A stretch of DNA of 64,000 bases, taken from contig OZ245020.1 in the NCBI GenBank assembly GCA_965223865.1, positions 1,312,001 through 1,376,000 of the forward strand. The letters are read 5' to 3'. This DNA comes from Nitrosarchaeum sp. (lineage in GTDB: Archaea > Thermoproteota > Nitrososphaeria > Nitrososphaerales > Nitrosopumilaceae). This document shows, in pieces, positions 20,609-37,345 of the stretch. Every line of letters starts with the position of its first letter. Position 1 is the first letter of the stretch. Position numbers and translations under genes: made by a program. The notes under the pieces were generated by a model. That model searched no databases. It saw only the letters and a program-made list of their open reading frames with translations, and was not told the DNA's origin.

Positions 20609-20750
20609 CTAATCTCTATATCATATTGATGTCTATATTTGGTTTTTTGATCTGTAAAATTTAAGAATAAAATTGCTTTAGAAATTAGTAATTGTTGAAA
20701 ATTGTTCATTTTTACAATAAAGACAATCTTTTCAGCGATAAAATTATTCT

Positions 20751-20900
20751 TCAACCTAACCTTTCAATCTCTGATCGAGTTTGGTTTAATTCTTTTTCTA
20801 ATTTTATTTTATCATTTTCAGAAAGTGAATTATCGCATAATCTCTGCAAAATCAGAAATTCCTTGTTTTTTAACGAAGTAAGATAATTTTGTTCAGTCAT
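20751..20900 (-). CDS. small coiled-coil hypothetical protein (49 aa, not in ORF track)
   Basis: Hand translation MTEQNYLTSLKNKEFLILQRLCDNSLSENDKIKLEKELNQTRSEIERLG. Confidence 0.55.
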   Translation of the reverse strand: MTEQNYLTSLKNKEFLILQRLCDNSLSENDKIKLEKELNQTRSEIERLG

Positions 20901-21034
20901 GAATTTCAAAATATTTCTTTGAACTTAAAATTTTCTTTAATTTTCAAAAAGAAAATAATTTAGTAACAAAATCAAATTTGGTAAAATTCAGAACACCATT
21001 AATCTCAAATTATATGATCTCAAACACAAACTAA

Positions 21035-21928: not shown

Positions 21929-22018
21929 AAAAATTCGTATCTATATCAATAACAGATAAAATATCAACATTGAAAATCATATCTTGTATTAAAATTAAAA
22001 AAATTAGCTGACACTTTT

Positions 22019-22255
22019 TTATTAGATTTCTTTAAGATTAACGCAAATACTCCTGATTGTAAATATATTCCACCATTTCCTTTCCGAACAAAATCAGAGA
22101 TTATTTTTCCGTCTGGAGAATTTGAAATGTACGTTACATTACAAGAACTTCAAGCCTGCAAAGATTCAAACTTTTACAGGATTCTTGAAGGATATCAATT
22201 ATACCAAATTCTGATATTTATCCATATAACTAATTTATACAAAATTTGTGCGTGA
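22019..22255 (+). pseudogene. relic of a protein-primed family B DNA polymerase (casposon/virus type)
   Basis: Startless frame LLDFFKINANTPDCKYIPPFPFRTKSEIIFPSGEFEMYVTLQELQAC...YRILEGYQ, continuing after a frameshift as IPNSDIYPYN*FIQNL; resembles the P.(L/F)P.R....FP.G.F....T..EL..A and F..FI..LY segments of protein-primed PolB. Confidence 0.65.
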
Positions 22256-22432
22256 TAACCATATCAAAATGGAAATCATACCGTATTCGTGCGTGTCAAA
22301 ACCTTATGATTCAATGGTTTTACTCGTGAGATTATTCTATTTGGTTTTGAGGTGTTGGTATAAGGTAAATGGTGCTGCAATGATCTTTACATTTTAAATT
22401 ATTTTCATTAATTCAAGAACTATCTGAAAAAA

Positions 22433-22591
22433 CTATTTGGTACTCAATCCTTTTTTCAGAACAAGATTCACTACGTATGAAAAACTGATATTTCTTTTAG
22501 TCTTCTTTATCATGTTAGCTTGTATTTCTCGAAGCTTGTCTTCAAGTTCTTTATCCATCATAATGGAAAGTCTATTGATTTTTTCATTCAT
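22433..22591 (-). CDS. small ribbon-helix-helix-like protein (52 aa, not in ORF track)
   Basis: MNEKINRLSIMMDKELEDKLREIQANMIKKTKRNISFSYVVNLVLKKGL; strand-helix-helix pattern typical of a thaumarchaeal family. Confidence 0.7.
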   Translation of the reverse strand: MNEKINRLSIMMDKELEDKLREIQANMIKKTKRNISFSYVVNLVLKKGLSTK

Positions 22592-22629
22592 TTTTTGTGT
22601 TTTCTCCTAAAAAAGAAAAAGAAAGAGTA

Positions 22630-23150
22630 CTAGTAATCCAGAATGACATCTGCATCACTTAGTACTTTTTGTAGTCTTGGCATAAGTGGATGACCATCCA
22701 CTTCAATTCCAGTCATAAGATCCTCAACACCAGAGTTCACAATACAGTGCTGGCAGGCTATCACTCTGCCGCCATCCTCTATGAATGCTTTGAGGGTGTC
22801 ATGTCCTACCTTTAGTTCAGGGGGATGTTGATTGTCTGCAAGAACAGGAGAATTTACATCCAAAAATATGACCACTTCCTTTCCTGCCTCTTGGAATGCC
22901 TTTGCATGTTGCACTCCCATCATTGCAGCATGACTCTCATAGCTACTGTTAGGATCACCAGTTGTTAGATGAACAAGGTAGTCTTTTCTGAATCCATCAT
23001 TACTGAGGCTGGAATAAAACCCGATATTCCACCAGTTACAGCGTCTGCCGATTGCTGTGATGCAGGAAAAGCAGTAACGGCAACCAGAAATATGGCCGCA
23101 AAGACTGGAATTGCAACTGAATATTTCAGTACATTATTACTCATTGGCAT
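22630..23150 (-). pseudogene. secreted DsrE-like protein split by a 1-nt frameshift
   Basis: ORF 22965-23150 (signal peptide) joins ORF 22630-22923 via DYLVHLTTGDP if one A is added to the GAAAAG run near 22985; VVIFLD and IAC..C DsrE motifs. Confidence 0.75.
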
Positions 23151-23205
23151 TATAATGACATAATGTTAAAAAACAAAATTGGTGACTTCGTCTAATGTAC
23201 CAATA

Positions 23206-23715
23206 TTATAGTGCCAGAAAAATATCCTCTGAATGTTCCTTTTTGCTGTCAAGCAATTTTGAAAACTCTTTTCTGAAGGTGTGTTTTAGCAGTCCCATAT
23301 TTTTTATTTTATAGAATACTTTGCCGTCTTTTCTGTATTTTTCAACTACCTCATTTTTTATCAATTCAGAGAGATTCCACGAAACAGTAGAGGGGCTCTT
23401 GTCAATCTTTGATACAATCTTTGATACAATCTCTTTGAAGGTGGGTTTGCCATTTACTATTATTTGTAACAAAATTTTCTTTTTTGTAGGCTTTCGCAGA
23501 TTTCTGATAATGTCAAATTCTTCCTCATCAACATTCAAAGAATAGTACCGCTTGTACCTCGTATATTTTTTTGATTTTATTTTTCCATCTTTTTCCAATT
23601 TGTCAAGATAATGGACAACAACTCCATTTTCTAGACCTGTTTCCTTGATCAATCCCCTTACATGAATTCCAGGATTATCCTTAATGATCTCCAATATGAG
23701 ATTTGGTCTTTTCAA
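23206..23715 (-). CDS. tandem winged-helix transcriptional regulator
   Basis: NPGIH.R.L...TGL.NG...HYL and KSPSTVSWNLSEL wHTH repeats. Confidence 0.85.
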   Translation of the reverse strand: MKRPNLILEIIKDNPGIHVRGLIKETGLENGVVVHYLDKLEKDGKIKSKKYTRYKRYYSLNVDEEEFDIIRNLRKPTKKKILLQIIVNGKPTFKEIVSKIVSKIDKSPSTVSWNLSELIKNEVVEKYRKDGKVFYKIKNMGLLKHTFRKEFSKLLDSKKEHSEDIFLAL

Positions 23716-23743
23716 TCTAGGCTTTGTTGCTGTGTGTTAATAT

Positions 23744-23872
23744 CTAAGATTTTTGATGTATCTTGTGTCTGGTTCCATCTTCATGAATACATTCATCTCC
23801 AACATGGCGATGATTTTCATGTCCTTTGTGCTTGTGATGTTCCTGATCTTCGCAGTCACATGCTTTTTCCAA
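23744..23872 (-). CDS. His/Cys-rich micro-protein (42 aa, not in ORF track)
   Basis: TTG start; MEKACDCEDQEHHKHKGHENHRHVGDECIHEDGTRHKIHQKS; co-oriented just upstream of the wHTH gene. Confidence 0.6.
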   Translation of the reverse strand: MEKACDCEDQEHHKHKGHENHRHVGDECIHEDGTRHKIHQKS

Positions 23873-24048
23873 CACTAAAAAATGCTAAATTCGCCATTAA
23901 TAATTAAAATATAATTTTCAACAATGAAAAAATACTTAAAAAAAAATATATGAAATGCCAAAATCTGATAACAGTTTTAGTATATTCAAATTCGATAAAC
24001 TCACCAATTTCTTTTTGTTTTGTTTTTGGTAAGTAACAATGAAGAAAA

Positions 24049-24369
24049 ATGAATTCTCAACAGAAAGAAAAGAAAATGCCATGGAAATGGTATGTTGGAT
24101 TTGTGTTGGCGGGGTTGGCCATATTGATGATGGTCACAATTGCTCCTATCTGGCACTGGTTTCCAGTAGAAATTACAGAACAAGGAACAGTACTGGCAAT
24201 AGTTGAGAAAGGATGTGTTATTCAAACACCATCAGTATCAATGCCAGTGATTCAAGAATGCAGTGCACAGCCAGGAGAAGTCATTGATGTGACATATTTT
24301 GTTCCATCAAAAGTAACAAGCGGTTACTTTGAGAGAATGCAAGAAAGAGCAGCACTAGTCCAACCATAA
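24049..24369 (+). CDS. membrane-anchored hypothetical protein (paralog of 31077-31394)
   Basis: Single TM helix then GCV..T ... C...PG..I motif. Confidence 0.75.
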   Translation: MNSQQKEKKMPWKWYVGFVLAGLAILMMVTIAPIWHWFPVEITEQGTVLAIVEKGCVIQTPSVSMPVIQECSAQPGEVIDVTYFVPSKVTSGYFERMQERAALVQP

Positions 24370-24623
24370 TATTTTTTTGAATTTTCATAAGGATGATTTT
24401 CAAACCAGGATGAAATTAACATTATTCTCAAATTTGGTGTTGTTCACAGATAGACCTGTCATTTTCTTTGTCGAATTTACAAATCATTTCGTCAATACTA
24501 CATCACACAATGAACATTTTGTATCTTTTTCGCTGTGACAGATATGGTTTTGTCATTTTAAACACTGATTTTTAAATAGACTAGTGTACATGCATTATCA
24601 AATATAAAAAAGAAAAAATGTTC

Positions 24624-25190
24624 CTATCCTCCTGTGACAGGGAATATATGAACATGCATACTTTTGTGTGTGTAAATGTGACCCATGCCATTTAGCGGAA
24701 CATCAACAGTTGCAGATCCAGACCATCCGCCTTCAACAATTCCAGTACCTACTAAATCACCAGCTCCTGCAGATACTGAAATCTTTTGGTTGACTCCATT
24801 ACCTCCAACATTTACTTCCTTGAGGGTAACTCTCAGGGCTTTCTCGTTTACTGGTTCTACATTAGAAATCTTCACACCAACAACTGAGGACATTGCCTTG
24901 TAGTACGGCTCACAGTAATGCGGGGGCATGTCTCCACCCATGTGGCATTGCTGATGAACTGTTCCAGGTCCATAAAATACTCCATGTCTACTTGGACCTC
25001 CACCACTGCCCATCATTCCGCTAGAGCTGCCATCTCCACCACCGTGACTCATTCCTCCACCAGAGCCTCCACCTCCTCCCATTCCACCCATCTGGGCTTC
25101 AACAGAAGAAAAGTCAGACGTGAATACAAGCGCAGATGACACAATCACTCCTGCAATGATTCCAATCAAAAGGCCTCGATTGATATTCAT
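24624..25190 (-). CDS. secreted Gly/Met/His-rich protein
   Basis: Signal peptide, low-complexity MGGMGGGGG tract, CHM....PHYCEP motif. Confidence 0.75.
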   Translation of the reverse strand: MNINRGLLIGIIAGVIVSSALVFTSDFSSVEAQMGGMGGGGGSGGGMSHGGGDGSSSGMMGSGGGPSRHGVFYGPGTVHQQCHMGGDMPPHYCEPYYKAMSSVVGVKISNVEPVNEKALRVTLKEVNVGGNGVNQKISVSAGAGDLVGTGIVEGGWSGSATVDVPLNGMGHIYTHKSMHVHIFPVTGG

Positions 25191-25317
25191 TGGTTATGAG
25201 AAAGAATATTGTAATTTAACTCACAAACCAGATTGTCACTTTTGATTTTCATATCTCAAAATCATATTTTTTGGAAAATTTCTCTGAATTATTCAAAAAA
25301 AGGTCAAATGAGTGGTC

Positions 25318-25331
25318 CTTATCTATACCCC
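25318..25331 (-). repeat. variant terminal-repeat end of a second (older) element
   Basis: Minus strand reads GGGGTATAGATAAG versus GGGGATATAGTTAAG (1 gap, 1 mismatch); directly abuts the 14-bp direct repeat. Confidence 0.65.
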
Positions 25332-25345
25332 ATACACGTTGTGCT
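25332..25345. repeat. target-site duplication, left copy
   Basis: ATACACGTTGTGCT, identical to 37069-37082. Confidence 0.92.
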
Positions 25346-25384
25346 GGGGATATAGTTAAGCAGTAATTTATCAGACCCACGTGG
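25346..25384 (+). repeat. left terminal inverted repeat
   Basis: GGGGATATAGTTAAG-N14-ACCCACGTGG. Confidence 0.9.
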
Positions 25385-25490
25385 TAGTATTTTTAATTCA
25401 GAAATTATTTCAAGTATATTTTGAGATGTTTTAACAATTAAAACATAGATCCATCTATTTACTAGCGTGGTTTAGCCCACACATACAAAA

Positions 25491-26426
25491 ATGGATAAAA
25501 ATCTAATTGCGGGAATTCTCATAATCACAAGTCCAATCCTTGCTGCATTTGCCATGTTTCCTGACAGTTTTGATATGAGTTGGAATCAGGGAAGGGGAGA
25601 CTTTCTCTTTGCACTTGTGTTTGTGGTTGCAGAGCTTGTTGGACTAAAAATCATCATCTCTAAAAAGAGACTCATTCTTGCGGTTCCGTTTGTAGCTGCA
25701 ATGATCTCATATGTGATTGGACTGGAGTTTGGAATAAGAGAATATTTGTTGGAATCATCCAAGACATTTGACATACAGTTAGTGGATTCCTGGATACAGA
25801 TGTGGGACTTTGTACTGATGGCACTGTTCATAACTGCAGTTCTGAGTGTCTATTTTGGTACAAGATGGATAAGAATTGCACCTGCTGCTCCCATATTTCT
25901 GGGAGGTTCTGCAATCATTCTTTCACTGGATGCATTTTTCCCGTATGACACACTAGGACCATTACAGTATGTGGTACCTTTTCTGGTGCAGACAAATGTC
26001 TGGTTAGTATCCGTGTTTGATTTGGGTACGGCAGTTGCGCGAGATAACCTAATGTTTCTAAAGGGTGATTTTGGTTCCATGGCACTACAGGTGTTCTGGC
26101 CATCTGCAGGCGTTCACAGTGTCGTCATCTACTCCCTTGTCATGGGTGCATTCTTGCTAAAAATGAACATTCCACGAAATAGAAAATCTGCCTACTTTGC
26201 ATTAGGAATTGCAGGCACCATTGGAGTCAATGTAATCAGAATCTTTTCTCTTTCGTGGTATGCCCTAAAGGTGACAACAGATACAGAAAAATGGGAGGCT
26301 TTCCATGACATTGCAGGCAGCATAATGTTCTTGCCGTGGCTGTTTGTATTTTTGTTCATAGTAATTCTCGTTGAAACCAGAAGAATGAAAAAAACAGAAC
26401 AGATTGAATCTAAAATAACACCATGA
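25491..26426 (+). CDS. artG: thaumarchaeosortase (archaeosortase/exosortase family)
   Basis: Polytopic membrane protein with FWPSAGVHS (Ser at the catalytic Cys position), N..RI and FH motifs. Confidence 0.88.
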   Translation: MDKNLIAGILIITSPILAAFAMFPDSFDMSWNQGRGDFLFALVFVVAELVGLKIIISKKRLILAVPFVAAMISYVIGLEFGIREYLLESSKTFDIQLVDSWIQMWDFVLMALFITAVLSVYFGTRWIRIAPAAPIFLGGSAIILSLDAFFPYDTLGPLQYVVPFLVQTNVWLVSVFDLGTAVARDNLMFLKGDFGSMALQVFWPSAGVHSVVIYSLVMGAFLLKMNIPRNRKSAYFALGIAGTIGVNVIRIFSLSWYALKVTTDTEKWEAFHDIAGSIMFLPWLFVFLFIVILVETRRMKKTEQIESKITP

Positions 26427-26468
26427 TATTTTTAAGTATATTTTAAAAAAAAATAGAATTTTAGTTGA

Positions 26469-26669
26469 CTATACATAGTTTCTCTTATCATCTACAGGGT
26501 CTGGTTGCTCATCTAAGGAAGATCTAAATGTGAAACCACAAGAATTGCACTTGCCCAACCAAAAATATTCTGCATAAATATCTGATACCATCACACCGGT
26601 CCAGTTTCCACTAAAAACAATATCGTTACTTTTGCATTTTGGACATAATGATGATTCAATAGTTTTCAT
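26469..26669 (-). CDS. Zn-ribbon hypothetical protein
   Basis: CPKC ... CNSCG. Confidence 0.65.
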   Translation of the reverse strand: MKTIESSLCPKCKSNDIVFSGNWTGVMVSDIYAEYFWLGKCNSCGFTFRSSLDEQPDPVDDKRNYV

Positions 26670-26686
26670 TCTCTACTATCTTTCTA

Positions 26687-27082
26687 TTAGTCAGTCTCAA
26701 GATGAGAACTAAATTCGTCAGAAACCATGTGTTTCCAATTTTCTATTGTATCGAGACATATACTTTCTATAAGGTATTGTCGATTTTCATCCATGGTCAA
26801 TTCTTTATCTTCAATTTTTTCTAGTGATTCCAGGGTTTTGATGTTTTCTTCAAAATACAAAGCACATGAATCATGTATCTTTTCTGAATCCTTAGCGGCA
26901 GTTATTATTTTGTCCAGTTCCTCCAAGTTTTTTGCATTAGATACTTTCTCAAGATATTCTTCCAAAGTCATGACATTATTTGTAGACAGTTTGTTCATCA
27001 ATACAAAATTGTCCACATAGACAAAAAATGATCCAAATCCCACAATTCCAATCAAGATAATTATCAAAACTATAGGTTTCAT
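26687..27082 (-). CDS. membrane-anchored hypothetical protein
   Basis: N-terminal TM helix, acidic helical domain with two Cys. Confidence 0.65.
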   Translation of the reverse strand: MKPIVLIIILIGIVGFGSFFVYVDNFVLMNKLSTNNVMTLEEYLEKVSNAKNLEELDKIITAAKDSEKIHDSCALYFEENIKTLESLEKIEDKELTMDENRQYLIESICLDTIENWKHMVSDEFSSHLETD

Positions 27083-27095
27083 TTTCTTTCTTCTA

Positions 27096-28091
27096 TCAAG
27101 GGATTAAACTCAAAATATGCTCTGCAGTCTCTTTGTTTTGTATTATGTTCATGTGATTTGTTCCCTCAATAACTACATGCTTTCCTTTATTGGATAAATC
27201 TGCTAACTCTTTACCCAAGAACATGTGCATTTCCCTTCTTTCATTTTCTGACATTTCTACCTCAGGCATATTGTTAAAATCCATCTCAGAGGCAGACATA
27301 GAAACAATTGGTAATGTTCCTCTTGGATAGTGAGCATGTTTTGTTTGTTCCAATGATTGCTCAAGATAGTTAACTTCTGATCTTATCGCATCAAAAGGAG
27401 GATTCCATGTGAAAAAATACTTGTACGTTTTTTGTGTGTCTTCATCAATTACATCTGAAGTGTTTTCAACAAAACCACCTAGTAAAGTCAAGATGCCAAG
27501 CTTGACGATGGCCTCTTCTATCCAGAAAGCAGACAGCAGTTCATGGTGTGTGCGATATATCTCATCTTTGTATTCTTGGCCAAAGTGATGATACTGATTG
27601 TAATGGCTTGAATCGATAAAGGCAATGCCTGCAACATCTTCTTCATGTTCTGCGCTGTAAATTAGGCTTACAGCACCTCCTAAGGAATGCCCTGCAAGAA
27701 TCAGAGGCCCTTTAATCTCGGCAGTGCTGAGTAGTTGATGCAATTCATCGGACATGTTTTTGGCATGTGCTGGTTCATTGTTTTGTCCACTCCATCCGTT
27801 TCCTGCGCGATCATAGGTGCAAGTGTGCACAGATTTGGACAATTCCTCCTGTAGATCGTAATACAAGGGACTCTGAACTCCCAGCCCTGCAATTATTACA
27901 ACAGTTGGTTGTTTGTCATTTTCTGGACCTGTACAATACAGGTGCATATCCATACCGTTAACCGAGTAGATTTTTCCAGGAGGATCGATTATTGGGACAC
28001 TATAATTGGCAATTTGTCCTGCGATGATAACACTGCCAATTAAAATGGCAACACCAACCCCAAAATATTTGAAAAATCTCTTAACTTGCAT
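27096..28091 (-). CDS. alpha/beta hydrolase, N-terminally anchored
   Basis: YDRAG.GWS, GHSLGG nucleophile elbow, C-terminal H (TNHM). Confidence 0.9.
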   Translation of the reverse strand: MQVKRFFKYFGVGVAILIGSVIIAGQIANYSVPIIDPPGKIYSVNGMDMHLYCTGPENDKQPTVVIIAGLGVQSPLYYDLQEELSKSVHTCTYDRAGNGWSGQNNEPAHAKNMSDELHQLLSTAEIKGPLILAGHSLGGAVSLIYSAEHEEDVAGIAFIDSSHYNQYHHFGQEYKDEIYRTHHELLSAFWIEEAIVKLGILTLLGGFVENTSDVIDEDTQKTYKYFFTWNPPFDAIRSEVNYLEQSLEQTKHAHYPRGTLPIVSMSASEMDFNNMPEVEMSENERREMHMFLGKELADLSNKGKHVVIEGTNHMNIIQNKETAEHILSLIP

Positions 28092-28237
28092 GGTTTTCTT
28101 TCTTGTCTAACCTCTTGTGTCAAATGGGAAGTTCATAAATTCTTCTGATACTTTATACATGTGAAAAAGCAAATAATTTGAGAGGCATTAGTCAAGCAGA
28201 TTACAAGTTAAAACAAACCCAGTTTCTGTGAATCTTT

Positions 28238-28519
28238 CTAGAATGTTTTTGTTTTTTTCAGGAAAACCGAGATTACAATCATGTTTACTGCAGCAGCAGT
28301 AACAGATGAAATCAGAGATGCCAAGTATGCCTCAACATCAACCTCAAGAAAATAATACAAAGTAACCCATCTGACCACAAGATAAACTATCTCACCTACT
28401 CCAAACGAGAATGTCATTTTGATAATTTCTCTTCTGATTAGACTTGATTCCATCTGCCTCATGATCAAGTTTGCAGAGTAATTCCTAATTATACTGAGCA
28501 AGCCTACAATGATCCTCAC
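28238..28519 (-). pseudogene. C-terminal fragment of a membrane protein
   Basis: Two-TM ORF beginning abruptly at the junction with an opposite-strand gene fragment at 28520. Confidence 0.45.
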
Positions 28520-28643
28520 ATGTACAGTTCAGATCCCGAAATGCAACTATATGAGTTTAGACAAGAATTTGGAGATTCATGGGCAGGTGGACACTGATGA
28601 AAAAGAAGATGTACTGAAAGTATGCAAGTTTAAGGAAACTTAG
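28520..28643 (+). pseudogene. fragment paralogous to 32043-32345
   Basis: YSSDPEMQLYEFRQEFGDSWAGGH/frameshift/DEKEDVLKVCKFKET; nucleotide similarity to ~32215-32325. Confidence 0.75.
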
Positions 28644-28669
28644 CGGTTTTAATTTTTAGAACAAATTAG

Positions 28670-28912
28670 TCACTCATTTGGCTCAACAGGAGTCATTCCG
28701 ACATCATTTTCATATACTGGAATTTCATCAGGTGATGAGTTTCCTTCATACAATGGGATTTCTGAGATTCCAGGATATCCTGAAGGAGAAATATTTTCTA
28801 TGAAATGGCCAGAAGAGCCAAGATGAATCCCATAACCCGCATAGTTAAAAATCACTAGTCCCAAAAATACAATTCCAACTCCAATTACAATCAGCCGAAT
28901 AGCTTTTGGCAT
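28670..28912 (-). CDS. membrane-anchored hypothetical protein
   Basis: N-terminal TM helix; repeated EIP.YE. Confidence 0.6.
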   Translation of the reverse strand: MPKAIRLIVIGVGIVFLGLVIFNYAGYGIHLGSSGHFIENISPSGYPGISEIPLYEGNSSPDEIPVYENDVGMTPVEPNE

Positions 28913-28967
28913 GGTTTTTCTTGGATTTTCAGACTCATAAGGACTGCTGACCTTTACTGAGATAAAA

Positions 28968-29513
28968 TTAGATATTATTTGGATTTGACTTTCTCAACAA
29001 GACTCCTGTCAATCCCATAATTCCAACTAACCATACAGAATTAGAAATGATATTTTCTGGATTATTGTACATGAATGGAATGGCATCATGCAGGTTTGCT
29101 TTAATCATATTCGCTCTGTTATGAAGGTCCATCAAGCCGGTATGGTATGCAGAAGAATCTTCTGGAAGAATGGAAATTTTATCAGTACTTTTCAGCATAC
29201 TATCGACATCGTTCTGTATTCTAAGAAAGTTTGTGGACTCTGATGGGAATATCCAAACAGGGTTTTTTGAAATTACAATACCATTGGGATTAGTAGTTTC
29301 AGGAAGCCTGTTCATTACAAAATCCAGGCTGGTTTTGAGGTTCAATAGGAGATTTTCAATCAGTTCAGGATTAGAAGACTCCTCAATTTCATTTAAGTAC
29401 GATAAGCTTGATTCTATTGGAATATTTGCACTTTGATAAGAGGCACCTGCAAAAGAACTTCCAACAATTATTAGAATTGAAAAATAAATAATTTGTTTAT
29501 CGGAAGTCTCCAT
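28968..29513 (-). CDS. two-TM hypothetical protein (paralog of 36259-36831)
   Basis: NPVWIFP..STNF.RIQ and DSSAYH motifs shared with 36259-36831. Confidence 0.75.
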   Translation of the reverse strand: METSDKQIIYFSILIIVGSSFAGASYQSANIPIESSLSYLNEIEESSNPELIENLLLNLKTSLDFVMNRLPETTNPNGIVISKNPVWIFPSESTNFLRIQNDVDSMLKSTDKISILPEDSSAYHTGLMDLHNRANMIKANLHDAIPFMYNNPENIISNSVWLVGIMGLTGVLLRKSNPNNI

Positions 29514-29663
29514 GCGTGTTTTTTGGGATTCAATTTTATTATATTTTCCTAGGCGGTTTGCACGTCAAATACTGTTTACCGAGTATTGGCTCATGGGATT
29601 CGCCTCCTTTTTGGAGTCAAAAATGGACACAAATAGACACAAAATGATAATTTTTTGTAAAAA

Positions 29664-30971
29664 TTACTGACCAATAAAGCATCTCTGAAATTGCTTTAAC
29701 AATTCTAAATTACCTTGTACTTTGATTTTTCCAGAATTGATGGCACCAATTTCTTCTTTAGGAGAAGTTTCTTTGTTAACCATTTTGAGCCATAATTCAG
29801 AATCAGAAATTATTCTTAGATCAGCAGTTCCAACATGTTCATCCTTAACGTCTATAATTTCGTCTTTGATTATTATGGTTCCCTTTCTTGTTTCCTTTCC
29901 AGTAGATTCAAAATGAACAGTCATGTTAACGTCTCTTGCATGTTTTTGCTCAAATGCAACACGTACACCAGTAAGAAAGCTGTTAATTGAATTTGGTCTA
30001 AACACATTTCGTATTATTCGAACATCTTTGTTTGGGTTTTTTCTGGCATATTCTTCTGCATGAGTGTCTTTTGCAACATAGATTGGCTCTTTTTTGTTTG
30101 TAAGAGGTTTTAGGATGTTTTTTACCCAATCTTGAGGATTCGCCTTGTAGATTCCCACTTGATTTTCCCCTGCAGGACACACAGAAATGCAATATGCTGC
30201 CTTGTATTGAGGGCCGTAGGACAAGGATTGCCATTTTGAAACATTTTCACTATCATCAGATTTTTTTCTAAATTCCTTGACATTGTTTGACTCTACAATA
30301 GTTTCTATCCAATCTTCAAAACCACCCATAAAATCTCTATAATTATGAGTCATGCACCCATTGAAGTCAACTCCTTTTCGTACATCAAGTGCACCAACGG
30401 GACAGGATGCAACACATAACTGACATCCAATACATGGATCATAATCAATTGGTCTGTCATACTTGTCAACTTCTGAATCAATCAAAATTGAATCAAGCAA
30501 CATGAATGTACCAAACTTTGGATGAAGTATCATCCTGTTAATTCCAGTCTTACCAATTCCAGCTTGTTCAGCAATTGGCTTGTGACTAATTTCCCAGATT
30601 TTGCCAGCCCATCTATTCATGTCCATAGGGAAAACGGGATGGCATGCAACACCTCTAATGCTAATTTCATTTAGACGTTTGATGATTTTTCTTGCAATTA
30701 TTGACAAATCAGCATATGTTTTATGGAATTCTTCACTTGCCAAAGATCTTGATGGACTCTGAATGTTTTCAGGATTTGTTCTAACACAAAATGAGATTAT
30801 TGTTTTTGTCTTATAGTACAACCCCAAGGCTTCTTCTTTCACAGGTCCTAGTTCCTTACGATCTATCTCTACAAAACCTGCATCATCAGCACCTTCTTCC
30901 AAACAAATTTTTCGCAAAAGCTCTGATGATGCACCTTGAAACATTGTAAGTTTTTTCGCATTACTTTTCAT
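29664..30971 (-). CDS. QueG/reductive-dehalogenase-like 4Fe-4S protein with C-terminal SCP2 domain
   Basis: SHK..AE.AG.G..G.N, HPKFG, C..C..C...CP..A and C...CP clusters; C-terminal ADL.I......W......GKIKV.G (SCP2-like). Confidence 0.8.
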   Translation of the reverse strand: MKSNAKKLTMFQGASSELLRKICLEEGADDAGFVEIDRKELGPVKEEALGLYYKTKTIISFCVRTNPENIQSPSRSLASEEFHKTYADLSIIARKIIKRLNEISIRGVACHPVFPMDMNRWAGKIWEISHKPIAEQAGIGKTGINRMILHPKFGTFMLLDSILIDSEVDKYDRPIDYDPCIGCQLCVASCPVGALDVRKGVDFNGCMTHNYRDFMGGFEDWIETIVESNNVKEFRKKSDDSENVSKWQSLSYGPQYKAAYCISVCPAGENQVGIYKANPQDWVKNILKPLTNKKEPIYVAKDTHAEEYARKNPNKDVRIIRNVFRPNSINSFLTGVRVAFEQKHARDVNMTVHFESTGKETRKGTIIIKDEIIDVKDEHVGTADLRIISDSELWLKMVNKETSPKEEIGAINSGKIKVQGNLELLKQFQRCFIGQ

Positions 30972-31005
30972 TATACAGGTACTTTACAAAAGTAAGTAAA
31001 TAAGA

Positions 31006-31029
31006 TAGCAAGTAACCTTTTGGTAACAT
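31006..31029 (-). promoter_or_regulatory. operator copy 1 (putative HxlR-family site)
   Basis: TAGCAAGTAACCTTTTGGTAACAT upstream of 29664-30971. Confidence 0.7.
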
Positions 31030-31076
31030 ACTCAAAGACAAACCAAAAATGAAAAACAAAATAAGAAAAATAGAGT

Positions 31077-31394
31077 TTAAGGATTAGCCGTTTCTAGTTT
31101 ATCCTGTATTCTGTCATAGTATCCATTGAGTTCTGCTCCTGGAACATGGAATTCTGCTGTAACTATACTGCCAGGAGGAGAATTACAGTCAGGTACAACA
31201 TAACTATGACCTTTGCTTGTTTCAACCACACATCCAGCCTCAATTACTGCAATAACTTCTACATTTTCAGTTACTTGTGCAGGAATGTAGTTCCAAGGAT
31301 TGATGGTGATAGCTACAATAGCAATTGTTGCTCCAGTAATTAACAGTACCATCATTAATGTAGGTTTTTTGTCATCTTTTTGTTGTTGAAACAT
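31077..31394 (-). CDS. membrane-anchored hypothetical protein (paralog of 24049-24369)
   Basis: TM helix; VTE.V.VIA....GCVVET ... C...PG ... GYY.R.Q. Confidence 0.75.
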   Translation of the reverse strand: MFQQQKDDKKPTLMMVLLITGATIAIVAITINPWNYIPAQVTENVEVIAVIEAGCVVETSKGHSYVVPDCNSPPGSIVTAEFHVPGAELNGYYDRIQDKLETANP

Positions 31395-31432
31395 TTGTAT
31401 TCCTAATCATTACAACAATATCAAAGATAAAT

Positions 31433-31456
31433 TAGCAAGTTACCAAAAGGTAACAT
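31433..31456 (-). promoter_or_regulatory. operator copy 2
   Basis: TAGCAAGTTACCAAAAGGTAACAT between divergent 31394 and 31544 starts. Confidence 0.7.
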
Positions 31457-31543
31457 AGAATAATTTAGGATTTTAAAATTGTTACATTTATAAAGTTGCT
31501 GTATAAAGTAAAGTTATTAAATACAATTCAATTTTAGAATAAT

Positions 31544-31960
31544 ATGATACCCCTACAACAACATCTAGATGAATTTGGGATGAAAACTTGTCCTCTCGAG
31601 GTTAGTTTAAGCATAATTGGGAAAAAATTTACCATTCACATTGTAAGAAACATGCTTTTGTTAAAGCAAAAACGATTCAACGAATTTCTAAATTCCATGG
31701 AAGGAATCAGCACCAAAACCCTATCAGTACGCCTAAAAGAGATGGAGGATGCAGGTTTGATTAATCGCAACATCATTGAAAGAAGACCATTGAAAGTAGA
31801 GTACTCTCTTACTGAAAAAGGAGAAGCACTTGCTCCAATCATGATACAGATGGCAAACTTTTCCATGCATTGGGAATCAAAAAAAGTTTTCAAAAATAAA
31901 AAACCTTCAACAATTAAGGAAACGTTTGGAACTGAGCGATTAGCTAAAGTTTGGGATTAG
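31544..31960 (+). CDS. HxlR/YodB-family redox-sensing transcriptional regulator
   Basis: CP.E..L.IIG.K, RFNE, IS.KTLS.RLKE.E..GLI.R, VEYSLTEKG. Confidence 0.92.
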   Translation: MIPLQQHLDEFGMKTCPLEVSLSIIGKKFTIHIVRNMLLLKQKRFNEFLNSMEGISTKTLSVRLKEMEDAGLINRNIIERRPLKVEYSLTEKGEALAPIMIQMANFSMHWESKKVFKNKKPSTIKETFGTERLAKVWD

Positions 31961-31984
31961 AATTCAACCGTTTCTAATAAAAAC

Positions 31985-32008
31985 ATGTTACTTTTTGGTA
32001 ACTTGCTA
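31985..32008 (+). promoter_or_regulatory. operator copy 3
   Basis: ATGTTACTTTTTGGTAACTTGCTA upstream of 32043. Confidence 0.7.
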
Positions 32009-32042
32009 ACTTATAGCATACAAAAATCACTTTTATTCATAA

Positions 32043-32345
32043 TTGTCACTCCGAACCCCCATTAATGATACAACAAAAATAATGATAATTCTTCTAGTAG
32101 GAATTGCGGCAAGTCTAGTAGTTATTTCTGTAATTGGAATACCTTATGATCAAGCTTGTAGAGAAATTCATAATTATTCAAAGCAAGCAGCTGAGGAGGA
32201 TTCCCCATATGAACCAGATCCTGAAAAATAATTGGATGCATTTAGACAGGAATTTGGAGATTCGTGGGCAGTGGGATACTATGATGAGAAAAAGGATTCA
32301 CTGCATGTGTGCAAGTTTAAGGAACATAATTTTTTGATTTTCTAA
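32043..32345 (+). pseudogene. membrane-anchored protein with an internal stop codon
   Basis: Frame continues past TAA at 32229-32231 as LDAFRQEFGDSWAVGYYDEKKDSLHVCKFKE; the paralog at 28520 has CAA at this codon. Confidence 0.7.
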
Positions 32346-32376
32346 GCTGCTGGAAAACGCATTCGCAAGGGTTTTC

Positions 32377-32751
32377 TCAATACATAGTATTGTTATTTTC
32401 TGAATTTTCAGGAATTTGTTGGATAGAATCCCAATGCTCCACTATCTTCCCATTCTCATCAAACCTGAAAAAGTCCATTGTCACGTACTCGTCATTTCCG
32501 GGCCAAGTCTGGTGCGTGTGCAAGGCGACCAGATCCCCTTCTGCAATGACTCTCACAAACTCTATGCCCTTTTCAGGATACTCTTTTGACATACGCTCAA
32601 AATAATCGATGAACCCTTGTCTTCCGTTTGCTACTGCAGGATTGTGTTGAATGTAATCATCTCCTACAAATTTCTCAACAGCCTCTTTTGGATTGCCTTC
32701 ATAGGCCATCCTGTAAAACGCTATTGCATTTTGTTTATTTTCTTCAAGCAC
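32377..32751 (-). CDS. SnoaL/NTF2-like protein
   Basis: YIQHNP...G..GF, AEGDLV..H, DFFRFD..GKIVEHWD. Confidence 0.9.
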   Translation of the reverse strand: MLEENKQNAIAFYRMAYEGNPKEAVEKFVGDDYIQHNPAVANGRQGFIDYFERMSKEYPEKGIEFVRVIAEGDLVALHTHQTWPGNDEYVTMDFFRFDENGKIVEHWDSIQQIPENSENNNTMY

Positions 32752-32839
32752 AACAAAGAAATCAATTGAGCATACTTTAGTATTTCAGATTCAGTATTAT
32801 GGAATATTGGACCGTTTATTCTTAGTTGGAAGAATAAAA

Positions 32840-33898
32840 TCAGTTCATCTCTTGCAATAATGACAATCCCAATTTATGAACTGGTTTCATAGCTCTGTTT
32901 GTTAGAACAACAGCAGCTGATTGGTTTTGCAGATTCATGCACATGAAACTAGAAAACCCTTGTGTGCCACCATCATGTCCAAGAACATCGACATTTTCTT
33001 GTGGAAACACAAACCACCCTATACGAAAAGTAGACAAGAAAATTCCAACAGATTTTGTAAATAATTTCATAGATGTGGGGATTTTTGGAGTGGTTTTGGT
33101 ATTTTGGCAGTATTCAAAAACAGGGGAGAGTTTTGTTTTGGTCAAGCCCAGGCTTGCTTTTAGGAACTTTATCATGTCAGATGTAGTTGAACGCAAACTT
33201 GCAGCTGCCTCTATTGCAGGAACATTCCAGTAATCAGTTTGTTTATTCCTAAAGGAATAGCCTGTTGCCAGTTTATGTTTATGGGATTCAAAAATGTCAA
33301 TCCCAGTATCTCTCATATCAAGCACATCACAAACATGACTTTTCACGAGTTGTTCGTATGAACTTCCAGTGATTCTTTCAAGTACTTTCCCTGCCAAACC
33401 AAAAGCGAGATTTGAATACATCCACGTATTTCCAGGAGAATTTTTTAGTTTTTGTGTGGACATGTATTTTAGAAATTTTTTTGTATCGTATTCGTATTCC
33501 GCAATTCGTGATTTGCCAGTAGACATTATTGACAACATTTGAGAGGCAAATACAGAAAATGAAAATTCTGAAATTCCTGAAGTATGTGTAAGAAGATGAT
33601 TCAAAGTAATGTTATTTTTATCAAATGCAGAATCTTTTAGCTCTGGTAGGAATATAGTTATAGGTTCATCAAGTGATAATATTCCTTCTTGTTGTAATTT
33701 CACTGCAAGTATAGCAGTAAAGGTCTTTGTCATTGAGCCAATCTCAAAAACGGTATCGGTAGTTGGTTCAGTATTTGATTTTTTTTCAATTTCTCCATAA
33801 TTGAAAGTTTGAATGCCATTTTCATTGATTAACCCAACAGAAATTCCGGGACTTTTCCCAGATGTGACATGTTGTTTGAGAAGAGATTCAATACTCAC
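32840..33898 (-). CDS. serine hydrolase, beta-lactamase class C / AmpC-like family
   Basis: FEIGSMTK (SxxK), LLTHTSG, YSN, HDGG. Confidence 0.9.
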   Translation of the reverse strand: MSIESLLKQHVTSGKSPGISVGLINENGIQTFNYGEIEKKSNTEPTTDTVFEIGSMTKTFTAILAVKLQQEGILSLDEPITIFLPELKDSAFDKNNITLNHLLTHTSGISEFSFSVFASQMLSIMSTGKSRIAEYEYDTKKFLKYMSTQKLKNSPGNTWMYSNLAFGLAGKVLERITGSSYEQLVKSHVCDVLDMRDTGIDIFESHKHKLATGYSFRNKQTDYWNVPAIEAAASLRSTTSDMIKFLKASLGLTKTKLSPVFEYCQNTKTTPKIPTSMKLFTKSVGIFLSTFRIGWFVFPQENVDVLGHDGGTQGFSSFMCMNLQNQSAAVVLTNRAMKPVHKLGLSLLQEMN

Positions 33899-35115
33899 TT
33901 TATTTTCTCATCCCAATTCACCTTGTAAGAGAATATCCAATTTTGTCCTTTTTTGAAATTGGATTCACGTAAACCAACTTTAAGGAAAATTTTAGCGGCA
34001 ATCTTGCCCAAAATTCCAGATCTTAGAAATATGTTGCCGCTTTTCTGTGCTTCCATTACTATTCTCTCCACTCTGTCCTTTCGCAAAGACTCAAACTTTG
34101 TAAATGATTGCTCATGGTCAGAAACATCCCTAAGGCATTTTGCAAGGGCCACTGCATCCTCCATTGAGGCTGCCGCACCCTGGCCTATGTGGGGGGATGT
34201 GGCATGTGCAGCATCTCCAATCAGACACACCCTACCCTTATGCCACTTGTCCAAATGTGGGATGGAATAGATTGGAATCTTGACATAGTCTCTTGACATC
34301 TTGATGAATCTCTTTATCTGATCATCCTCTTTGTGAAACTCGAGCAATTTTTTTGTCCATTGTTCATCTGAGATATTTTTCAGCTCAGTCTTTATGGATT
34401 CTTCAGGATATGGAACATAACTCCACCAAACCATATTGTTGTCTGCTTCTACTGATGCACCACACAAGGTATTTTTGGCAAGGGTCATGTGAAATGCATT
34501 TGGTTCCAAACTGTGATCACTTTTTTTGCCCAACTCAGATCCTATCACGACAGTTCCAGAATATTCAGGCAATGGCGCACCAGGCAAGATTGCCTCTCTT
34601 GTCTTGGAGCGCAATCCGTCACAGCCTATTAGGAGATCCCCTTCTGCGCAAGTTCCGTCTTCAAAATGCGCAGTTACCTTTTCATCTGTCTCTTTGACAT
34701 CAACAAGTCTTTTTCCAAACTCCACAGGCATGCCAATGGATATGGCCTTTTGGGTCATCTCATGAATTAAATTCTCACGCCTGATGATTACCATGCCAGA
34801 ACCAAACTTTTCTCTCATCCATCCCCCAAAATCCATCTTGAAGATGTTCTTTCCGGAATGATTGTAAAAAAAGATCTTTGTAGAGTCGTCTACATTGATG
34901 CTCTTGTACACATCCAACATCTTCAAAATATTGATTCCGTTTGAGGTCAAAGAGAGCAGCCCAAAGTTTGGAGGTTTCTTATGTGCCTCATATATCTCTG
35001 AGTCAATTCCAGCACGATTTAGTGCAAGTGCCAAAGTTGGACCTGCAATTCCACATCCTACAATTATCACCTTTTTCTTATCTTTTTTATTTTCTGTGGA
35101 ATTCTCTGCTGTCAT
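33895..35115 (-). CDS. FAD-dependent monooxygenase (group A flavoprotein hydroxylase)
   Basis: G.GIAG, DG..S..R, LIGDAAH...P..GQGA....EDA. Confidence 0.92.
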   Translation of the reverse strand: MTAENSTENKKDKKKVIIVGCGIAGPTLALALNRAGIDSEIYEAHKKPPNFGLLSLTSNGINILKMLDVYKSINVDDSTKIFFYNHSGKNIFKMDFGGWMREKFGSGMVIIRRENLIHEMTQKAISIGMPVEFGKRLVDVKETDEKVTAHFEDGTCAEGDLLIGCDGLRSKTREAILPGAPLPEYSGTVVIGSELGKKSDHSLEPNAFHMTLAKNTLCGASVEADNNMVWWSYVPYPEESIKTELKNISDEQWTKKLLEFHKEDDQIKRFIKMSRDYVKIPIYSIPHLDKWHKGRVCLIGDAAHATSPHIGQGAAASMEDAVALAKCLRDVSDHEQSFTKFESLRKDRVERIVMEAQKSGNIFLRSGILGKIAAKIFLKVGLRESNFKKGQNWIFSYKVNWDEKIK

Positions 35116-35161
35116 TTTTTGTTCTCTTTGCTGTATCTTAGTTCTGAAATTATATAAACCG

Positions 35162-35175
35162 ACCGGTGCACCGGT
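35162..35175. promoter_or_regulatory. perfect palindrome, putative TetR operator
   Basis: ACCGGTGCACCGGT in the divergent monooxygenase/TetR intergenic region. Confidence 0.7.
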
Positions 35176-35245
35176 ATGTATTAGTTTTATAGTTGAGAAC
35201 CAAATCAGTAGAATTTAGATACTGGTGTGTGTCCTATTGTAGATA

Positions 35246-35845
35246 GTGAAGAAAACCCGTGTCAAAGACCCTGTTTCTGTAAAAAAAAGAATACTGGAAT
35301 CAGCTACAAAGAATTTTGCAAAAAACGGGTATGCAAAGACATCGCTTAATTCGATTGCAGAATCTGCCAAGGTAAGCAAAGGAGGACTGTACCATCACTT
35401 TCAAAGCAAGGAGGAACTGTTTACTGCAGTACTGTTTCAAAGCGTAGAACTTTCTGAAAAAACCAACTCAAATCTATTTCAAAACAAGGACAACATTGTA
35501 AAAGATCTGAACGAAAGTTATGACAAGGTAATTGACGGACCATTAAATTTTGCCAAAATCTGGATAGAGGGAATTTCTGAGTCAATACATAATCCAAAGC
35601 TCAGAAAACTGCTAAATCAGGGACGAGGTGAAACGGTAAAAATTGCAGTATCAAGACTAAAGAAAATACGAGAAGGTATAGGCGCATATCAAGGATTTAG
35701 TGATTCTGAGTTGACAGAGGTGGCAGAGTTAGTTTTGGACATATACAGAGGAATGATGATTGAAAGAGTATTGGGAAAGGACTCAAAATTGATCAGAAAG
35801 CGATGGATCAAAGCAATGCAATTGCTTTTGGCTTTGAAAAAATGA
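35246..35845 (+). CDS. TetR/AcrR-family regulator
   Basis: ILESA...F...GY..TS...IA..A.VSKG.LYHHF.SKEEL. Confidence 0.95.
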   Translation: MKKTRVKDPVSVKKRILESATKNFAKNGYAKTSLNSIAESAKVSKGGLYHHFQSKEELFTAVLFQSVELSEKTNSNLFQNKDNIVKDLNESYDKVIDGPLNFAKIWIEGISESIHNPKLRKLLNQGRGETVKIAVSRLKKIREGIGAYQGFSDSELTEVAELVLDIYRGMMIERVLGKDSKLIRKRWIKAMQLLLALKK

Positions 35846-35894
35846 GGTTAAGTTTTTACTACTAATCATGTTCTTGAATTGTAAACATGTTAGT

Positions 35895-36170
35895 TTATTT
35901 TAAAAAATAATCCACGGATTTTCGAGATGTTATATTTGCCTCGTTTTTGGAATTGTATTTTGAGTTTCCTAGTCTGAGTGAATAACCTATTAGTAAAAAC
36001 AGGGCAATTGCAGGAATGGTAAATCCTACTGCTACTATACCATACAGTACTTCTTTTGTCAATACATTTGCAAGAAAATTCTGGATTGGAGGAAAAGCAA
36101 CCACAATCAAGCTAGTTAAAAGTGAAGAAAACATGAAAAGTCCAAAATATTGCCACTTGTGATTTTGCAT
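35895..36170 (-). CDS. small membrane protein
   Basis: Two TM helices. Confidence 0.6.
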   Translation of the reverse strand: MQNHKWQYFGLFMFSSLLTSLIVVAFPPIQNFLANVLTKEVLYGIVAVGFTIPAIALFLLIGYSLRLGNSKYNSKNEANITSRKSVDYFLK

Positions 36171-36258
36171 TTGTAATTGTTAGTTAGCAGTAGAATTTAT
36201 CTTTGATTAAAAATAACGTAAATTTGGTGACAATTAAAGTAATTTATTAATTAAACAA

Positions 36259-36831
36259 TTACCTATTTGCATTTATTTGATTTCTTTTCTGTTTGAATGC
36301 CCAAAGTATGGCTACAAAAGCAGATGCCATAATTGAGCTAAATGCCAGATTTGCTACACTAAACATTGCATAAAGGGAAGCTTCTGCAATGTTTTCACGA
36401 AGAACCAGCGAATTATTGCTAATTTCAACGAGTTTTACATGATATGAAGAACTATCTTGCGGAGTCCACGTAAGTGATTCTGCATTCAGAATCATTCTAT
36501 CCAAATTCTCTTGCATACGGTTAAAGTCAGTAGTCATTGTAGGATAGATAAAAACAGGATTACCCTTATGCGGCAGATTTGTTTTTATCTCTTCAAGATT
36601 GGAATAGATCTCTTGAGGATCAGAGGAACTCATTACAATTCCTAACTGTGTTCTACTTTTGTCAAGGGGGTAAATGGCACCAAAATAATAACTAGTAAAC
36701 ATATATCCTGCAAAAACGACAACTGCAAGCATCCCAACAACATATGGAAGATAGATCTTGTTTATCATTTGTTTTCCATTTTGTTTATGTACTTTATTTC
36801 TTTTTTTGAAACTTGGGTGATTATAATCCAA
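36259..36831 (-). CDS. two-TM hypothetical protein (paralog of 28968-29513)
   Basis: NPVFIYP...TDF.RMQ and DSSSYH; real start possibly the downstream MINKIY. Confidence 0.75.
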   Translation of the reverse strand: MDYNHPSFKKRNKVHKQNGKQMINKIYLPYVVGMLAVVVFAGYMFTSYYFGAIYPLDKSRTQLGIVMSSSDPQEIYSNLEEIKTNLPHKGNPVFIYPTMTTDFNRMQENLDRMILNAESLTWTPQDSSSYHVKLVEISNNSLVLRENIAEASLYAMFSVANLAFSSIMASAFVAILWAFKQKRNQINANR

Positions 36832-36985
36832 AAATCTCTTCCATCTCTATTCTTGGATTCTTTTTTGGAATTTTCCTAATGGAATTTCCAATATCCAAAT
36901 TTCGGTACTTTATCATGCATGCCATTGTAAATCCTATGATACCCAACATCATTATATCAATGGGTGTAGGTACAGGAAGATTCAT
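36821..36985 (-). CDS. small membrane protein (54 aa, not in ORF track)
   Basis: MNLPVPTPIDIMMLGIIGFTMACMIKYRNL...; co-oriented with neighbours. Confidence 0.5.
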   Translation of the reverse strand: MNLPVPTPIDIMMLGIIGFTMACMIKYRNLDIGNSIRKIPKKNPRIEMEEIFGL

Positions 36986-37029
36986 GATTAAGATATTACA
37001 TTCATGATTTTATAAAATGTTGTTTTTTT

Positions 37030-37068
37030 CCACGTGGGTACGTTCTAAAACACCTTAACTATATCCCC
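37030..37068 (-). repeat. right terminal inverted repeat
   Basis: Reverse complement GGGGATATAGTTAAG-N14-ACCCACGTGG. Confidence 0.9.
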
Positions 37069-37082
37069 ATACACGTTGTGCT
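37069..37082. repeat. target-site duplication, right copy
   Basis: ATACACGTTGTGCT. Confidence 0.92.
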
Positions 37083-37345
37083 CCCATTCAAATTTGAACC
37101 AAATATTGAACAATTTCAGATCTAAAACCTTATGAGAAGCGTCAGATTTCTAGGCGTAAACTGGAGGATTTCTATTTTTACTCTTTCTCGATGAATTCTT
37201 TCGCACCTTATCTATAAAATAAACAAAAACTAATCTCTAGAATTTTATTCATATGGAAAAGTGTTCTAATCATCTCTTTAAGATCCTACATTCTCAGATT
37301 TGATAATAGTCAATTAATTAATCTGCTTCTGACAGAGGTGGGTAT

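Follow-up and report, generated by a model that had tools for sequence, protein, structure and literature searches.

The stretch of DNA analysed here, referred to below as the window, comprises 64,000 nucleotides of a Nitrosarchaeum sp. genome (contig OZ245020.1, positions 1,312,001 to 1,376,000 of the forward strand) and contains, from ~21989 to ~37290, an island that probably derives from casposons, i.e., transposons that encode a Cas1-family integrase. Read from the right, the island consists of a leader, a 14-bp repeat, an 11.7-kb element, a second copy of the repeat and an older element that begins with a variant end and is truncated on its far side (Table 1). The same succession of repeat, element, repeat, variant end and decayed segment had been outlined in a preliminary description of the sequence, and the coordinates bear it out. 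The G+C content is 0.33-0.43 in the island and ~0.28-0.33 on either side of it. Contigs from four public read runs bridge positions 21394-26184 and 23163-31034; since they span the left border as well as the inter-element junction, neither is an assembly artefact. The four runs belong to a single study and probably include the source sample. No joint that skips either element was present among their contigs, which cannot show absence, and the loose contig ends at 25314, 25346 and 37099 match other junction copies of the genome or the type of leader flank found in the closest relative, a genome of the same genus designated G030. A tRNA target for the island was considered and rejected, as the window holds no tRNA gene.

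The 14-mer ATACACGTTGTGCT is present in two exact copies, one on each side of the newer element as had been proposed, and no further exact copy was found in the 2.01-Mb genome. The 14/14 identical direct repeat corresponds to the ~13-15-bp target-site duplication that casposons generate at a specific site. The newer element begins and finishes, directly inside the repeats, with inverted ends GGGGATATAGTTAAG (25346-60 and 37054-68); its arms can be followed over 40 nt with 78% complementarity, which rises to 15/15 at the tips, and each arm contains a subterminal CCCACGTGG box. As expected for the terminal inverted repeats (TIRs) of a casposon, both ends are recovered by a profile of 13 ends (E<2e-8), which finds ends at ~15 places in this genome. 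Ends of the GGGGATATAGTTA type and of the GGGGTATAGATAAGG type belong to this family. The variant end CTTATCTATACCCC (25318-31) lies, as originally noted, directly against the left 14-mer in the orientation opposite to that of the newer-element end, and the same variant end adjoins the 14-mer at C1:203781 and C1:850886.

Table 1. Features of the island, in window coordinates.
Feature	Position	Strand	Basis
Protein-primed PolB relic, 5' side truncated at the left border of the island	21989..22400 (right limit approximate)	+	tblastn, three-frame translation
Frameshifted DsrE-like gene	22630..23150	-	Pfam DsrE, weak, E=0.0057
Winged-helix regulator gene, 169 aa	23206..23715	-	Pfam HTH_24, E=6e-14
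Small membrane protein, older segment	24049..24369	+	ORF; no Pfam family
Glycine-rich secreted-looking protein, older segment	24624..25190	-	ORF; no Pfam family
Leader-proximal end of the older element, variant inverted end (GGGGTATAGATAAGG read inward)	25317..25331	-	sequence match
14-bp target-site duplication, distal copy	25332..25345	+	exact match
Newer element, 11,723 bp, bounded by inverted ends, cargo only	25346..37068		inverted repeat; Pfam; tblastn
Distal inverted end with CCCACGTGG box	25346..25389	+	profile E=1.9e-8
Leader-proximal inverted end with CCCACGTGG box	37025..37068	-	profile E=6.7e-9
14-bp target-site duplication, leader-proximal copy	37069..37082	+	exact match
Leader	37083..37201	-	alignment with the resident ef-2 3' end
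Possible relic of a further variant end (CCTTATCTATAAAAT), uncertain	37205..37219	-	11 nt shared with the variant end

The newer element carries cargo only. A Pfam analysis of its 13 open reading frames (ORFs; all those of at least 90 aa on the predicted coding strands) revealed an alpha/beta hydrolase, an Fe-S/SCP2 protein, an HxlR regulator, a SnoaL-like protein, a beta-lactamase-fold protein, an FAD monooxygenase and a TetR regulator, in addition to small proteins without a family and an archaeosortase-like membrane protein whose Pfam score is below the cut-off. The TetR regulator, the FAD monooxygenase and the alpha/beta hydrolase are 43-47% identical in amino acid sequence to genes of one Cas1-bearing element of G233, a genome from another genus that is described below. 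No Cas1, PolB or recombinase was identified between 25346 and 37068 by Pfam, nor any casposase or PolB by tblastn and family searches, and the interval contains no remnant whatever of Cas1 or of a polymerase. Likewise, no recombinase family, the tyrosine and Tn7-type ones included, was found in the island ORFs scanned (at least 80 aa). The Cas1-family integrase that defines a casposon is absent from the genome as well as from the window: the best Pfam Cas1 match of the genome scores 12.9 bits, is below the cut-off and is interrupted by two stops (C1:951177), and tblastn with three casposases of relatives yielded a single 18-aa match (E=0.009). The element, which had been called intact, is therefore intact as a transposon shell of ends and repeat and not as an autonomous casposon.

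The older segment is decayed. Residues 296-364 of a casposon PolB (596 aa) from G054, a genome of the same genus, match positions 21989-22198 with 57% identity (tblastn, E=3e-19), and three-frame translations past 22198 contain frameshifts and stops. The family-B polymerase of casposons is thus present as a relic of ~70-130 aa in the older segment and is missing from the newer element; the relic had been recognized before, and it begins slightly to the left of where it had been placed. A PF03175 match at 14481-14867 was rejected as the PolB relic of the preliminary description, as it lies within the chromosomal replicative family-B DNA polymerase gene (13338-15896, 852 aa), which is located 6 kb to the left of the island and is the only PF03175/PF00136-type match of the genome. 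Two more relics of protein-primed PolB, both corresponding to C-terminal residues 510-596, were detected at C1:25232-25444 and C1:1474871-1475129, the latter at the true ef-2 site, ~780 nt inward from the element end. The frameshifted gene of the left segment is the DsrE-like one: compared with a 185-aa paralog, residues 58-185 are in one frame and a 61-aa N-terminal ORF (22965-23150) is in another. The winged-helix regulator has a 75% identical paralog at C1:1579775-1580290. The left segment is thus distinguished from native flanking sequence, as the preliminary description required, by an end that recurs at other 14-mer junctions and by PolB homology. The far end of the older element and a third repeat were missing from that description, and a mismatch-tolerant search of positions 18000-25331 did not reveal them either: the best combined match has 10 mismatches out of 28, and 200 shuffles give 9-12.

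The connection of the island to casposases is provided by relatives. An element of G030 (L025:7440-18293) has the same leader, 14-mer and ends as the window and contains a C-terminal fragment of Cas1, whose best intact relatives are 409-451-aa proteins of G233 and G268 (81-84% identity). In G233, full-length Cas1 proteins of 409-416 aa sit inside elements that have the same ends as the window. One of them covers positions 3-282 of the 283 positions of the Pfam Cas_Cas1 model (E=9.5e-57), and the best relative of solved structure is 6opm_A (E=3e-66; residues 6-397 aligned with 23-399 of a 431-residue chain), which is the Methanosarcina mazei family-2 casposase (PMC8464041; here and below, cited papers are drawn on for parts of their text). 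Judged by sequence similarity, the casposases of the same-ended elements are closest to this M. mazei enzyme. On these grounds, we accept the ends, the repeat and the cargo of the window as casposon-derived, a designation that is tempered by the lack of Cas1 in the window and in the genome. Tallies of relatives took in five unpublished genomes (G205, G257, G259, G092 and G077), on which no specific claim depends.

The right flank had been taken for unique sequence, which it is not. The 18 nt that adjoin the repeat (37083-37100) form a conserved palindromic core, GGTTCAAATTTGAATGGG, and the remainder of the 119-nt leader reproduces the ef-2 downstream region together with the last seven codons and the stop of that gene. 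In this genome, an element end (C1:1475907) lies 92 nt past a 736-aa frame that ends in ...PGVNEFIDKE, which we assign to ef-2 on account of its length and because the ef-2-linked casposon sites of G003 and G054 match it. The gene is a common target of thaumarchaeal casposons (PMC6563490). The ef-2 site has the same leader and a 14-mer that differs from that of the window at 2 of 14 positions. With the 14-mer included, the window leader is identical to the resident ef-2 3' end at 97 of 133 positions (73%); it is closer to another copy, at C1:283100 (81.6% identity over 185 nt, C1:282959-283142), than to the resident gene.

The combination of leader, 14-mer and element end is not confined to the window: counting that copy, this genome has it at 11 places, and G030 has it at 12. 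A related 14-mer adjoins the leader at all 11 leader sites of this genome. The copy at C1:283100 can be aligned with the ef-2 3' end over 142 nt, and the remaining eight share ~31-37 nt with the ef-2 site, i.e., the 18-nt core and the 14-mer. In G030, every one of the 12 junctions shares 31-39 nt with the ef-2 leader, and the flanks are unrelated. Among 301 genomes of the family, a 43-nt pattern of leader, 14-mer and end occurs 26 times in six genomes (the reversed control, 0), and a scan of species representatives for the junction pattern returned 33 stretches, whose titles name only Nitrosopumilus or Nitrosarchaeum. No copy of leader plus 14-mer was found at three or fewer mismatches in G003, G054 and G107, all of the same genus (G107 is 60% complete). 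No structured RNA was identified at the leader by Rfam (E<=0.1); an unrelated sub-threshold snoRNA match is located at 37731-37806. The CCTTATCTATAAAAT candidate of Table 1 lies at the outer edge of the ef-2 copy, where the border sequence appears to be common to the leader flank at C1:136451.

Three further observations concern leaders and junctions elsewhere in the genome. At C1:650167-650305, the leader core and a 14-mer are followed by 93 bp, a second exact copy of that 14-mer (ATACATGCTGTGCT, + strand) and a degenerate end-like sequence; what lies between the two repeats is either a miniature insert or the rest of an element that was deleted almost entirely. At C1:1053838-1080391, two ~13-kb elements meet at an end-14-mer-end junction (1067043/58) and have leader-type 14-mers on both outer sides, which suggests a rearrangement between two arrays; they contain 85-88% identical copies of the window genes at 32846-33879 and 35935-37039, and a comparison with four relatives gave no clean empty site because of inversions and other island DNA. 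Finally, the motif TAAAAA..GAAA..CCC...GCGT...ACGAC...GTAAAG follows the stop of ef-2 (C1:1475940-1476000) and also that of an unrelated gene (C1:1142163-1142260); it is possibly a shared 3' element or terminator, of which part of the long leader would be a copy.

Collinearity between G030 and the window extends up to 22001 and resumes at 37344. The interval in G030 holds 4.9 kb of ordinary genes, with no leader and no end, that have no DNA match elsewhere in the Nitrosarchaeum sp. genome. The genes present between the same flanks in G030 and in a further genome, G073, encode a CBS-domain protein, PRPP synthetase, an AMP phosphorylase-like protein, USP and a cupredoxin-like protein, and in G073 the same PRPP synthetase gene adjoins the CBS gene. 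Since both relatives have ordinary genes at this position, the island replaced native DNA. The series of empty, single and tandem states that had been anticipated across relatives does not exist at this locus in these two genomes, whose genes are unrelated to the island. At another locus, C1:1725728-36, our genome is empty and G030 has 5,128 bp, which consist of 75 nt of other sequence, a leader, a 14-mer, an end and an element, so that the leader lies inside the indel. The flank alignments overlap by 9 nt there, and an AT-rich short repeat is present at both borders. This comparison is suggestive of a leader carried in with the insert; the border repeat fits a target duplication and a microhomology deletion alike.

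A much longer array is found in G233 (C1:1415231-1524382; loci L030, L031 and L034-L038). It extends over ~109 kb and contains at least six elements that share one 14-mer. The array starts with a leader-type end at 1415231, and synteny with the genome of the window returns only at 1524382. End-14-mer-end junctions are located at 1436803/18, 1444954/69, 1457580/95, 1478062/77 and 1497933/48; all five carry the 14-mer AATAACATTGTGCT, and the leader-proximal 14-mer is its reverse complement. Elements E1, E4 and E5 encode full-length Cas1. Between these Cas1-bearing members lie E2 (8.1 kb; TFIIB and Lrp/AsnC regulators) and E3 (12.6 kb; HSP20, MoxR, DUF58 and VWA genes), neither of which has Cas1. 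The most distal member, E6, retains a 49-aa Cas1 fragment only, and its far end was not found in the array. From this composition it follows that cargo-only members exist and that decay is polarised towards the distal side. A 751-aa ORF of E3, which starts 10 nt after the end sequence, shares 82% identity with residues 128-872 of a 965-aa E4 ORF, so that Cas1-less members originate by internal deletion, of which E3 is a clear case; the deletion may have preceded or followed insertion. The 965-aa ORF is present in one of the three Cas1-bearing G233 members. It has no match in Pfam or PDB sequence searches; a protein atlas groups it with family-B polymerase clusters at a very high score, which we treat as a lead only, and it contains a YMDTD motif, which we take to be polymerase motif C. 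Searches with PF00136, PF03175 and the G054 PolB revealed no PolB in G233 besides the chromosomal one, and no relics of the 965-aa PolB-like gene were found in the genome under study.

We consider it likely that the island is the fossil of a polarised two-member array of casposon-family elements beside a copied landing site. Polarity had already been proposed in the preliminary description. It is borne out in that two elements with TIR-type ends share one repeat, the leader is on one side and the distal member is the decayed one, as it also is in G233 (E6), in G030 and at C1:853199-850886; the part that does not stand is a leader native to the flank. We infer the following course of integration. 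A casposase would recognise the leader and the 14-bp target and join the two 3' ends of the element to the target, one at each border, and the 14 bp would be duplicated when the gaps are repaired. The leader-adjacent 14-mer would be the only full target, and a newcomer would consequently land between the leader and the previous element, the older members being pushed distally, where they would erode. Since both the newer element and the genome lack an integrase, the newer element would either have been moved by an enzyme supplied in trans or have lost its integrase gene, and the array would now be immobile. Before the block reached its present position, the stacking may have occurred at an ef-2 locus, possibly that of another strain, because the leader is not native here and the block replaced genes kept in relatives.

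Several points weigh against this interpretation. A casposase gene or relic is absent from the island and from the whole genome, which is 99.98% complete, and neither an empty nor a single-occupancy state of the locus was found in the two relatives compared, G030 and G073. Perfect agreement between the arms of the newer element is confined to 15 nt and the CCCACGTGG box. The polymerase relic is located 3 kb from the variant end and is of the protein-primed type of family 1, in contrast to the casposases of elements with these ends, which resemble family 2; the relic may derive from a third element, or the family may be modular. In addition, published integration assays used casposases from outside this lineage.

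Of the other explanations, the strongest is that the 11.7-kb element entered as an autonomous casposon and later lost Cas1, and with it the polymerase, by internal deletion or gene replacement. We regard this as less probable, although a serious contender: E3 of G233 is clearly an internal-deletion derivative of an E4-like member, the homologous element of G030 keeps just a fragment of Cas1, and the genome of the window is full of relics. Yet the newer element holds no remnant of either gene, its Pfam-matched genes cover the models nearly end to end, and its repeat is perfect. Moreover, E2 and E3 are nearer to the leader than E4 and E5 and, if position reflects age, are younger yet without Cas1. 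That the cassettes were moved by a tyrosine or serine recombinase, with end-14-mer-end as the joined site of a circular form and leader plus 14-mer as the chromosomal site, in the manner of integrons or integrative islands, seems to us very improbable. Two inverted arms around a 14-bp core do resemble a recombinase core site, the layout of the products would be identical, arrays are also known from elements that use recombinases, and a XerC-like recombinase gene is present in one thaumarchaeal casposon (PMC6563490); the island ORFs scanned, however, contain no recombinase family, members with intact ends encode full-length casposases, and a repeat of ~14 bp is the target duplication reported for family-2 casposons (PMC8464041). 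Chance or local duplication in an ordinary variable chromosome, conceivable in AT-rich genomes, which are rich in short repeats (at two or fewer mismatches, 4 of 100 shuffles gave two 14-mer matches), we exclude for practical purposes because 2.01 Mb hold just two exact copies of the 14-mer, both abutting an end, and because of the 26 occurrences of the 43-nt pattern against none of its reversed control.

Going beyond the fossil array itself, one can speculate that in this Nitrosopumilaceae lineage the landing site, i.e., the 18-nt leader and the 14-nt repeat, is not fixed in the host but travels with the elements, having been acquired together with flanking DNA at ef-2, and that at new loci it seeds arrays in which Cas1-less cargo is stacked beside the leader. 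Casposases would then drive the acquisition of gene cassettes with portable leaders, in a system that recalls integrons by its function and CRISPR by its layout. We put this forward tentatively and think it rather unlikely. The CRISPR adaptation machinery has been proposed to descend from casposons, and the step from a single-site transposon to a leader-adjacent, DNA-storing array is the least documented part of that history. The locus and its relatives display long leader-polarised arrays, members of pure cargo and leaders at a dozen loci, which lie inside inserted DNA where this was compared. If the leader is indeed portable and cargo-only members are moved in trans, such arrays would represent, in nature, a stage between transposition and array-building and would let ammonia-oxidising archaea acquire genes for regulation and for the modification of small molecules. 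Otherwise, the island is one more decayed tandem casposon site, a phenomenon already described.

Tandem casposons and the analogy with CRISPR are indeed in print. In Methanosarcina, tandem casposons have been described that have nothing but a shared duplication between them and of which one copy is inactivated, together with similar targets at several loci, solo ends and analogies to Tn7 and CRISPR (PMC4779613); a tandem pair, NitNF5-C1/C2, lies in ef-2 of a Nitrosopumilus (PMC6563490); and head-to-tail arrays are expected from CRISPR-like integration (review, PMC9939771). The CRISPR-like reading of the window that had been offered before thus holds as an analogy of layout and integration that these papers had already drawn, with the proviso that the newer element is not an intact casposon. 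In the full-text literature searched, with subscription journals outside its coverage, we found no description of Cas1-less or non-autonomous casposons (they could be among the 'cryptic integrated elements' of PMC6563490), of six-member arrays, of a dozen leader copies per genome, some with ef-2 fragments, or of a genome that lacks a casposase and has 11 leader junctions. Cargo-only cassettes, long arrays and a travelling leader are therefore possibly new.

With the Methanosarcina family-2 casposons (Krupovic et al. 2016, PMC4779613), the present elements share near-identical targets at more than one locus, solo ends as relics and, in the lineage, a casposase closest to 6opm. They differ in that the host is a thaumarchaeon, the target lies downstream of ef-2 or in copies of that region and not at tRNA-Leu or intergenic sites, the newer member lacks Cas1 and PolB, the G233 array has at least six members as against the two reported for Methanosarcina, and leader junctions are far more numerous, at 11 in this genome and 12 in G030. 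The ~400-aa casposase of family 2 corresponds in length to the G233 enzyme and to no gene of the window. The HNH nuclease and two helix-turn-helix (HTH) proteins that accompany a tRNA or intergenic target in family 2 do not make up a comparable set here: no HNH nuclease was found in the 13 newer-element ORFs or in 20 G233 ORFs scanned.

The family-1 thaumarchaeal casposons (Krupovic et al. 2019, PMC6563490; Wang et al. 2021, PMC8464041) resemble the present elements in host family, in the use of the ef-2 3' site, in tandem insertion and in their protein-primed PolB, which the window relic matches; this relic is the only family-1 trait of the window, which has no short Cas1. Family 1 is characterized by a 13-bp target duplication, a short leader, GTTTT, and element ends that terminate in TTCTA (PMC8464041, PMC6563490), in contrast to the 14 bp of other sequence, the 18-nt palindromic core and the GGGG... 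ends seen here, and the genomes G003 and G054, in which family-1 casposons occupy ef-2, are devoid of the present leader plus 14-mer. The family-1 enzyme has 347 aa and no C-terminal HTH (PMC8464041), whereas the same-ended casposases have ~410 aa and are aligned up to M. mazei residue 399 of 431.

The likeness to a CRISPR array lies in the one-sided leader, the short repeat regenerated at each insertion, the newest unit next to the leader and the Cas1-family integrase of relatives. It is one of layout and integration only, with no sign of transcript or guide function: the units are 8-22-kb gene blocks with inverted ends of their own rather than 30-40-bp spacers, and the window has two 14-bp repeats 11.7 kb apart, no cas gene and no Rfam family. 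Integrons and Tn7-type islands are similar in being accessory-gene islands in which ordered cargo-only blocks are stacked at one recognised site; they differ from the present island, which has inverted ends and a 14-bp duplication and, in the ORFs scanned, neither Tn7-type genes nor a tyrosine recombinase such as the IntI type, which characterizes integrons together with attI and attC-bounded cassettes.

Some minor observations concern the cargo. Palindromes of the GTTACCAAAAGGTAAC type are present in three copies (31012-31032, 31427-31456 and 31985-32014) that flank the HxlR gene (31544-31960) and its divergent neighbours, and they are probably operator sites. A segment of ~180 nt occurs twice in the newer element (28457-28637 and 32142-32324), with 75% identity between the copies, which are 3.7 kb apart. 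Lastly, the 106-aa small membrane protein of the older segment and a 105-aa one of the newer element (31077-31394) are paralogs, and both resemble an ORF of a G233 element.

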